From: Escherichia coli 042 | GTDB taxonomy: Bacteria; Pseudomonadota; Gammaproteobacteria; Enterobacterales; Enterobacteriaceae | Reading direction: 5' to 3' (one strand) | Assembly: GCF_000027125.1 (NCBI RefSeq) | Contig: NC_017626.1 | Length of the DNA: 64,000 bases | Shown here: positions 41,048 to 42,097 of the stretch, piece after piece | How positions within the stretch are numbered: the stretch's first letter is position 1 | Layout: every line of letters starts with the position of its first letter | Notes under the pieces: generated by a model | Databases searched by the model: none | Seen by the model: the letters and a program-made list of their open reading frames with translations, nothing else | What the model was told of the DNA's origin: nothing | Made by a program: the position numbers and the translations under genes

Positions 41048-42097
41048 ATGCTTAATACTGTAAAAATATCCAGTTGTGAGTTAATCAACGCCGACTGCCT
41101 GGAATTTATCCGGTCGTTACCCGAAAATTCTGTTGACCTGATAGTCACGGACCCGCCGTACTTTAAAGTGAAGCCTGAAGGCTGGGATAACCAGTGGAAG
41201 GGCGACGATGATTACCTGAAGTGGCTGGACCAGTGTCTGGCGCAGTTCTGGCGGGTGCTGAAACCTGCCGGAAGTCTTTACCTGTTCTGTGGTCATCGCC
41301 TGGCATCTGATATCGAAATCATGATGCGTGAACGCTTCAGTGTGCTGAACCATATTATCTGGGCGAAGCCGTCCGGACGCTGGAACGGATGCAACAAGGA
41401 AAGCCTGCGGGCGTATTTCCCCGCCACAGAGCGCATTCTGTTCGCGGAACATTATCAGGGGCCGTATCGTCCGAAAGATGCCGGGTATGCGGCGAAGGGC
41501 AGTGCACTGAAACAGCATGTGATGGCCCCGCTGATTTCTTACTTTCGTGATGCGCGCGCGGCCCTGGGGATAACGGCAAAACAGATTGCAGATGCCACAG
41601 GAAAGAAAAACATGGTGTCGCACTGGTTCAGTGCCAGTCAGTGGCAGCTACCGAACGAAAGCGATTATCTGAAATTACAGTCGCTGTTTGCCCGGGTGGC
41701 AGAAGAGAAACATCAGCGCGGTGAACTGGAAAAGCCCCACCACCAGCTGGTGGATACGTATACGTCACTGAACCGGCAGTATGTGGAGCTGCAGAGTGAA
41801 TATAAGCATCTGCGGCGGTATTTTGGTGTGACGGCGCAGGTGCCGTACACGGATGTGTGGACACATAAACCGGTGCAGTTCTATCCCGGGAAACATCCGT
41901 GCGAAAAACCGGCAGAAATGCTGCAGCAGATAATCAGCGCAAGCAGTCGTCCGGGTGACCTGGTTGCAGATTTTTTTATGGGCTCAGGTTCAACGGTAAA
42001 AGCGGCACTGGCGCTCGGGCGTCGTGCGATTGGCGTTGAACTGGAGACCGGACGTTTTGAGCAGACAGTCAGGGAAGTTCAGGATTTAATCGTTTGA
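41048..42097 (+). CDS. orphan DNA methyltransferase (N6-adenine/N4-cytosine type, DPPY motif), 349 aa
   Basis: LIVTDPPY near N-terminus and FFMGSGST near C-terminus; no adjacent restriction endonuclease gene. Confidence 0.85.
   Translation: MLNTVKISSCELINADCLEFIRSLPENSVDLIVTDPPYFKVKPEGWDNQWKGDDDYLKWLDQCLAQFWRVLKPAGSLYLFCGHRLASDIEIMMRERFSVLNHIIWAKPSGRWNGCNKESLRAYFPATERILFAEHYQGPYRPKDAGYAAKGSALKQHVMAPLISYFRDARAALGITAKQIADATGKKNMVSHWFSASQWQLPNESDYLKLQSLFARVAEEKHQRGELEKPHHQLVDTYTSLNRQYVELQSEYKHLRRYFGVTAQVPYTDVWTHKPVQFYPGKHPCEKPAEMLQQIISASSRPGDLVADFFMGSGSTVKAALALGRRAIGVELETGRFEQTVREVQDLIV

Follow-up and report, generated by a model that had tools for sequence, protein, structure and literature searches.

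In a 64,000-nucleotide (nt) stretch of Escherichia coli 042 DNA (contig NC_017626.1; the whole stretch is hereafter the window), we studied an open reading frame (ORF) at positions 41048–42097 and found that, judging from its sequence, it is an intact orthologue of M.EcoGI and M.EcoGII, and thus a beta-class, S-adenosylmethionine (SAM)-dependent enzyme. We consider it probable that the gene encodes a non-specific adenine methyltransferase that is silent in the lysogen, is expressed late in a manner dependent on the antiterminator Q, and protects phage DNA. The gene itself is already known, being a member of a well-known enzyme family in its usual place and one of thousands of E. coli prophage copies; what is added here to the enzyme papers is its context, namely a PR'-tR' arrangement with a second terminator, and a folded leader that is conserved across distant phage groups.

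The ORF encodes an intact M.EcoGII-type methyltransferase

41048–42097, + strand: predicted M.EcoGII-family non-specific N6-adenine DNA methyltransferase (349 amino acids, ATG start)

The ORF ends with a stop codon at 42095–42097, and the ATG at 41048 is the sole possible in-frame start because another stop codon is present at 41042–41044. The initial annotation of this DNA had described an ORF with a DPPY/F motif near the N-terminus and an FxGxG motif near the C-terminus. A motif scan located both (DPPY, residues 35–38; FMGSG, an FxGxG, residues 310–314), and a match to the Pfam family N6_N4_Mtase (E = 2.3e-44; 152 bits vs. a cut-off of 26.7; residues 29–340) agreed with that description, as did a full-length match to MTase_II (4e-167) in PADLOC. 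The order of the motifs, with DPPY at the N-terminus, a recognition domain in the center, and FxGxG at the C-terminus, is that of the beta class. The nearest solved structures are likewise beta-class amino-methyltransferases acting on N6-adenine or N4-cytosine (M.RsrI, CcrM, M.MboIIA, and an N4-cytosine enzyme); since these solved relatives match just the two halves of the catalytic core, a central insert of ~165 residues separates the halves.

M.EcoGII of E. coli O104:H4 is a prophage-borne, beta-class enzyme of 349 amino acids that methylates adenine in any sequence context (PMC5778455). When aligned to it, the window protein was identical at 331 of 350 positions (~95%), with two single-residue gaps near the C-terminus and none before residue 273, and the substitutions sit mostly within residues 148–278. 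The M.EcoGII sequence used for this comparison was machine-read from a portable document format (PDF) file (Supplementary Table S1 of PMC11551740), and for this reason some of the 19 differences are probably reading errors (e.g., HH for HI at 102–103, and RRR for RR). The identity is comparable to that between M.EcoGI and M.EcoGII (333/349), two enzymes that differ at 16 residues and are both non-specific (PMC5778455). Similarly, the enzyme of phage 1720a-02, which has been named as the carrier of an enzyme very similar to M.EcoGI and M.EcoGII (PMC5778455), is 95.4% identical to the window protein. Nine family members, the window protein included, were aligned; they come from phages of Escherichia, Hafnia, Providencia, Klebsiella, Yersinia, Vibrio, and Aeromonas. 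The alignment has more than 100 invariant columns, among them those of DPPY, FMGSG, PGKHPCEKP, and DNQW, and every one of these columns is retained in the window methyltransferase. The choice between N6-adenine and N4-cytosine, which the initial annotation had left open, is therefore narrowed to N6-adenine by the identity to M.EcoGII, and from the same ~95% we infer that the window allele would methylate adenine in any sequence context. Because M.EcoGII does so (PMC5778455), a target prediction in REBASE would be expected to return no target sequence.

The gene lies behind a predicted lambda-type late promoter and two terminators

39652–40473, + strand: late-gene antiterminator Q (273 amino acids; Pfam Antiterm PF03589, E = 1.5e-49)
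40479–40519, + strand: predicted late promoter PR' (alignment to lambda 44504–44649)
40556–40577, + strand: strong intrinsic terminator tR', CCCGCCGCCTGGCGGG followed by T6 (terminator scan and fold)
40700–40897, + strand: gene for a small winged-helix protein (65 amino acids; AlphaFold model; weak Pfam TrmB match, E = 0.0026)
40884–40907, + strand: second intrinsic terminator, overlapping the stop codon of the small ORF (terminator scan)

The position of the methyltransferase downstream of PR', as proposed in the initial annotation, is supported, in that Q ends at 40473 and is followed by a lambda-like PR' and tR'. Q is annotated as an 'antitermination protein' in near-identical genomes. The predicted PR' is composed of a −35 element, TTGATT (40479–40484), and an extended −10 element, TGgTAAATT (40498–40506), with a start near 40513 and a predicted sigma-70 pause element, AACGAT, at 40514–40519. 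Two blocks, GGTAAATTTG (which contains the −10 TAAATT) and AACGATGGG (the pause element), are identical and equally spaced in lambda 44504–44649, a region that we take to hold PR' and the start of 6S RNA. PR' escaped a consensus promoter scan because it matches 8 of the 12 hexamer positions; the scan found no sigma-70-type promoter on the + strand between 39600 and 43500, and hence none ahead of the methyltransferase.

The Q gene, PR' with its −10-like pause element, and the terminator form a lambda-type late-operon arrangement, and control of this region by Q and pR' is documented in Stx phages (PMC6266700, PMC7547250). Q-dependent late expression of the methyltransferase is thus supported at the level of sequence. 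Lysogens do not express M.EcoGII, and its expression slows growth (PMC5778455); homologues in O111 Shiga toxin-producing E. coli gave no methylation signal in lysogens (PMC6602927). PR'-tR' together with the second terminator offers a mechanism for the published silence of M.EcoGI and M.EcoGII in lysogens, and the two terminators, along with the lack of a promoter ahead of the gene, suggest that the methyltransferase would be silent in this lysogen as well.

The tR' hairpin is also the left boundary of a module common to Stx2a_WGPS2, phiP27, and Stx2c phages, and in the SfV record a terminator is annotated at the equivalent place. The Q of Stx2a_WGPS2 is a different one; in this phage the similarity to the window starts at tR' and runs through the small ORF and the methyltransferase, after which the same ileZ/argN/argO tRNA genes are found. 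Since the similarity begins at tR', Q and PR' are exchangeable, while the segment from tR' to the methyltransferase and then the tRNAs behaves as a cassette. The stem of the second terminator (40884–40907) covaries among phages, and a terminator hairpin with its T-run is found directly 5' of the leader (see below) in most related loci.

The gene occupies the same slot in many phages

The methyltransferase gene is present in 1,977 of 5,426 complete E. coli genomes, in up to 6 copies per genome, and four E. coli records are 100% identical to the window gene. At the DNA level 38 phage records, mostly of Stx2-converting phages, match it. The order in Stx2 phages is Q, the small ORF, the methyltransferase, the ileZ/argN/argO tRNAs, stx or other cargo, and the lysis genes. 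A location between Q and the lysis genes is also seen in phiP27, SfV, mEp460, and Hafnia and Providencia phages, and in N15 and phiKO2 a late promoter and terminator are annotated just upstream of the methyltransferase. No tRNA genes adjoin the methyltransferase in SfV, mEp460, N15, and phiKO2. In near-identical annotated genomes the gene set of the prophage is complete and lambda-like.

Additional genes separate Q from the small ORF in some phages: phiP27 (L005:1703-2932) has one for a GIY-YIG nuclease family protein, and Stx2a_WGPS2 (L002:3845-5408) has two reverse-strand hypothetical ones. Nothing comparable is present in the window.

No cognate restriction endonuclease was found

The initial annotation regarded the methyltransferase as an orphan, and a search for an overlooked cognate endonuclease by Pfam, PADLOC, and annotation supported this. 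There was no restriction endonuclease domain in the 13 neighboring ORFs between 32392 and 46500 (Pfam, PADLOC), none was annotated across the whole prophage in near-identical RefSeq genomes, and a motif scan of the 64-kb window revealed no second methyltransferase-like ORF. By Pfam and PADLOC the neighboring ORFs encode RusA, a DUF968 protein, Q, a sialate O-acetylesterase, a holin, a lysozyme, an Ead/Ea22-like protein, and a RosmerTA-like pair.

Some of these neighbors were considered as the missing partner and rejected. RusA is a Holliday-junction resolvase. The DUF968 protein (YdfU family; 38222–39268, + strand) gave an HNH match in Pfam that is sub-threshold (22 bits vs. 26.6) and no match in PADLOC; it is a common nin-region protein that is called 'HNH endonuclease' in some phage records. 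Two overlapping nin-region genes (35823–36473 and 36451–37557, + strand) matched RmrT (4.6e-25) and RmrA (6e-105; HTH_3 plus Peptidase_M78) in PADLOC, so that this pair (35823–37557) appears to be a RosmerTA-type defense or toxin-antitoxin pair instead of a restriction enzyme.

A small winged-helix gene and a conserved structured leader precede the methyltransferase

40918–41047, + strand: conserved structured leader RNA, ~130 nt, ending at the methyltransferase start codon (covariance model)

The AlphaFold model of the 65-amino-acid protein (predicted local distance difference test score 91) has an H-H-H-beta-beta topology and matches a generic winged-helix fold. The protein contains only two cysteines and is weakly related to gp51 of N15 and phiKO2, for which the RefSeq name is winged-helix protein. 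Using tblastn, we found the small ORF in phages of seven genera (57 records), and wherever coordinates were compared it lies ~150–190 nt before the methyltransferase.

The interval between the second terminator and the methyltransferase ATG is more conserved than the small ORF itself. A covariance model built from 22 close variants of this leader matched the window at 40909–41053 with 140 bits. The deduced fold has a three-way junction of the nearly invariant helix P1 (UGGGC/GCCCA), which closes it, P3, and P2, a long hairpin; two further hairpins, P4 and P5, follow the junction, whose bases are conserved, and ~12 nt then lead to the AUG. This structure is a comparative one; in P1 and P3 it departs from the minimum-free-energy fold obtained for the window leader. 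An exact-pattern scan found the element in at least 120 stretches of viral contigs, with a DPPY ORF at a fixed distance after it in 109 of the 112 that have enough flank. By the covariance model it is present in 58 of 83 sources (L132:1365-1506, L133:1368-1506, L137:1313-1474, and more than 50 others), always on the + strand and 5' of the methyltransferase, and in ~40 of the 58 the match ends exactly at the start codon. The leaders of N15, phiKO2, PY54, and PhiR46_1 share the architecture with entirely different helix sequences, and more distant matches were obtained in VHML (47 bits) and in an Aeromonas phage (24 bits). In an Aeromonas/Vibrio subset (L136 and the similar IMG/VR loci L221, L226, L227, L228, L234, and L350), ~130–145 nt separate the leader from the methyltransferase; in Aeromonas phage phiARM81ld (L136:1329-1544) a gene within this gap bears the annotation of a 'Com-like' translational regulator.

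Covariation in the helices was extensive. In the model-fitted alignment, which by its construction leans towards the model, standard pairs occupy 83% of the leader cells vs. 18–44% when the 3' partners are slid by 1–3 columns; 36 of 39 pairs have changed on both sides; and double changes occur in 372 cells vs. 118 ± 12 in shuffles. Four to six pair types are seen at positions in P2 and P4. A MAFFT alignment of the close variants already covaries in P3 (at one pair, CG in 8, AU in 5, and UA in 5). The frequent G-U pairs indicate that the leader is a + strand RNA.

Several other explanations for the leader were rejected. It is not protein-coding, because single-base indels separate close relatives. 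P2 is not a DNA palindrome of the operator type, in that its variants pair via G-U wobbles, which is possible only in + strand RNA. A promoter inside the leader, suggested by the extended −10-like TGgTAAATG (40913–40921), was dismissed since a start there would destroy the conserved P1. Chi sites number 13 on the + strand and 5 on the − strand of the window, and one of them, GCTGGTGG, coincides with the left arm of P2 (40926, +) and its complement with the right arm (40947, −). A Chi site was judged incidental to the hairpin, as the leaders of N15, phiKO2, and PY54 keep the hairpin without it. Lastly, the leader does not depend on having the winged-helix protein as its partner, for a homologue (E < 1e-10) was found upstream, within ~520 nt of flank, in only 23 of 52 distinct loci.

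No Rfam family matched the leader at its gathering score; the best was P26, on the opposite strand (24 bits vs. 36), with the rest below 16 bits, and a 12-kb scan gave no match to it at E ≤ 0.1. Searches with four strings of 16–24 nt from the leader retrieved no paper text matching them. Of the features of a riboswitch, the leader has a three-way junction with conserved bases and the covarying helices P2, P3, and P4; neither a ligand, nor a platform of the terminator type, nor a match to any known class was found. We raise, at slightly less than even odds, that the leader is a new cis-regulatory RNA, widespread with M.EcoGII-family genes in temperate phages of Enterobacterales, Vibrio, and Aeromonas, which gates the translation or stability of the mRNA of a toxic enzyme. 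It is possible that it works as a translational gate, as an element for mRNA processing or stability, or as a riboswitch. Its signal could be a small molecule, e.g., SAM or S-adenosylhomocysteine, or else a phage-encoded protein, for which the winged-helix protein and, in some lineages, a Com-like one are candidates.

Proposed function of the methyltransferase and alternatives to it

We propose that the methyltransferase gene heads the late operon of a lambda-like prophage. Transcription from PR', a constitutive promoter, would end at tR' in the lysogen and any read-through would end at the second terminator, so that the toxic enzyme would not be made. Upon induction, Q would render RNA polymerase resistant to termination, and the Q-modified polymerase would pass both terminators, the winged-helix gene, and the leader to enter the methyltransferase gene. 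The enzyme would then heavily methylate replicating phage DNA before packaging, and the progeny genomes, on entering the next host, would withstand many of its adenine-sensitive restriction systems (Types I, II, and III). An anti-restriction role has been proposed for M.EcoGII (PMC5778455) and repeated in a review that compares it to Mu Mom (PMC12707154); for the present prophage, it is from these parallels and the elements described above that we infer Q-dependence, late timing, and an anti-restriction benefit.

Some observations weigh against this proposal. The start codon of the methyltransferase has no Shine-Dalgarno sequence at normal spacing. A plasmid modified by M.EcoGII transforms non-restricting E. 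coli less well by 4–5 orders of magnitude (PMC5778455); because of this poor transformation, heavy methylation may be costly and partial methylation is more likely in vivo. Further, owing to the reading of the PDF, the true identity to M.EcoGII could be slightly higher or lower, and about 10 real differences lie in or beside the target-recognition region (residues 148–278).

An alternative is that the main role is host take-over or developmental timing, in which indiscriminate methylation of adenines in the host chromosome and in phage DNA would shut down host replication or transcription, or alter processes that depend on SeqA, MutH, or Dam, to the advantage of the lytic program. Expression of the enzyme is toxic and slows growth, and heavily methylated plasmid DNA transforms very poorly even in cells that do not restrict (PMC5778455); a different methyltransferase of an Stx prophage regulates induction (PMC10810198); and the gene stands at the front of the late operon. 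However, lysis of the host is already settled by the time late genes are expressed, and the spread of the family over phages of very different hosts fits a generic barrier such as restriction. We consider this role unlikely as the main one.

That RNA (late mRNA, the adjacent phage tRNAs, or rRNA) is the physiological substrate and DNA methylation is secondary seems to us decidedly improbable. M.EcoGII does methylate single-stranded RNA and RNA/DNA hybrids in vitro (PMC5778455, PMC11551740), but its initial rate on RNA is ~100-fold below that on DNA (Supplementary Table S3 of PMC11551740). The gene adjoins tRNA genes in Stx-type phages, but it lacks such neighbors in SfV, mEp460, N15, and phiKO2. 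Although an MT-A70 enzyme of phage PA8 targets 16S rRNA with a small winged-helix partner (PMC10810198), and a winged-helix gene is found upstream here as well, the DPPW motif of the PA8 enzyme places it in another family.

Equally improbable is a silent passenger, i.e., an intact gene that is never usefully expressed or is not needed. The missing Shine-Dalgarno sequence, the two terminators and structured leader ahead of the gene, and the fact that many E. coli prophages are defective would all suit a passenger. Yet the ORF is intact, several genomes carry it at 100% identity, conservation of its flanking regulatory elements extends across genera and includes compensatory changes, a sign of selection, and in near-identical genomes the lambda-like gene set of the prophage is complete.

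A sequence-specific N6-adenine or N4-cytosine methyltransferase with a target of its own is scarcely credible, for although beta-class motifs alone cannot separate N6-adenine from N4-cytosine enzymes and the substitutions relative to M.EcoGII cluster centrally, the protein shares 95% identity with two enzymes whose lack of specificity has been demonstrated, and its central domain has the same length as that of M.EcoGII and aligns to it without gaps. None of the four alternatives is favored by the evidence.

tRNA genes and small RNAs downstream of the methyltransferase

42109–42137, + strand: candidate promoter of the tRNA cluster, TTGCAG-17 nt-TATTAT (read from the sequence; below scan threshold)
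42147–42396, + strand: three tRNA genes of the ileZ/argN/argO type (ARAGORN, Rfam tRNA, and RefSeq annotation of the identical region)
42411–42436, + strand: intrinsic terminator after the tRNA cluster (terminator scan and fold)

The anticodons of the three tRNAs are CAT, Arg-TCG, and Arg-TCT. The first tRNA (42147–42222, + strand; CAT) is called Met by ARAGORN and Ile in RefSeq for the identical gene; being of the ileZ type, it is presumably read as Ile after lysidine modification. The initial annotation had the methyltransferase expressed with the tRNA genes. This is only partly right: the tRNAs probably also have a promoter of their own and do not depend on PR' alone, the candidate being at 42109–42137 (cf. 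the start site driving the tRNAs that was mapped in the Sakai Stx2 phage; PMC7547250).

Past the terminator, three copies of the small RNA family STnc100 (RF02076) are found on the + strand at 42472–42662, 42701–42874, and 42940–43149, each ended by a terminator. Two of the matches are strong (136 and 165 bits) and one is weak (30 bits). They occupy the cargo slot that holds the stx genes in Stx phages.

Relation to known systems

The closest counterparts of the window enzyme are M.EcoGII and M.EcoGI from prophages of the O104:H4 strain C227-11 (Murray et al., 2018; PMC5778455), which it resembles in length (349 amino acids), identity, motif order, prophage location, and orphan status. It also shares with M.EcoGII a catalytic core (residues 1–134 and 260–349) and a central four-helix target-recognition domain as described in PMC11551740. 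The window allele, whose activity is a predicted one, differs by about 19 substitutions, and neither the leader RNA, nor the small winged-helix gene, nor the setting of PR' and tR' features in the published work.

In the late control region, lambda PR'-6S RNA-tR' and StxS of Stx phages (PMC7547250) resemble the window in having a constitutive late promoter and an early terminator that is overcome by Q, and lambda shares with the window PR' the −10 and pause-element sequences. The short transcript predicted for the window is ~65 nt and, past the pause element, is unrelated in sequence to StxS.

Within the family, N15 gp52, phiKO2 gp52, PY54 ORF60, and VHML ORF17 (48–62% identity) are encoded before lysis genes with the same leader upstream. 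In the N15-type arrangement the annotated late promoter and terminator are between the winged-helix gene and the leader, whereas in the window the winged-helix gene is downstream of tR'.

Outside the family, the mom/Com system of phage Mu offers a parallel as a late, toxic, and broad adenine modification that is silent in lysogens (compared in PMC12707154), and in both systems a small gene for a regulator, a putative one in the window, and an RNA structure are present directly upstream. The protein encoded upstream in the window is a winged helix with two cysteines and not a zinc finger like Com, and control of the com-mom type was not found in the window, where there is no Shine-Dalgarno sequence at normal spacing to be sequestered; the two systems resemble each other in function only. 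Mu Mom makes N6-carboxamidomethyl-adenine, not methyl-adenine, and its sequence is unrelated to that of the window methyltransferase.

M.EcoPA8orf6770P with PNB-2 of Stx phage PA8 (PMC10810198) is likewise an 'adenine methyltransferase' of an Stx prophage with a small winged-helix protein encoded upstream. We considered whether this 'prophage rRNA methyltransferase' is the same gene and rejected it: it is an MT-A70 enzyme with a DPPW motif at another position in the phage genome, prefers 16S rRNA, and is not an orthologue of the window gene.

M.EcoGII is sold as a reagent. If the leader is a true regulatory RNA, it could help to control M.EcoGII expression in the laboratory, and it would show how phages time a modification of DNA on a genome-wide scale.

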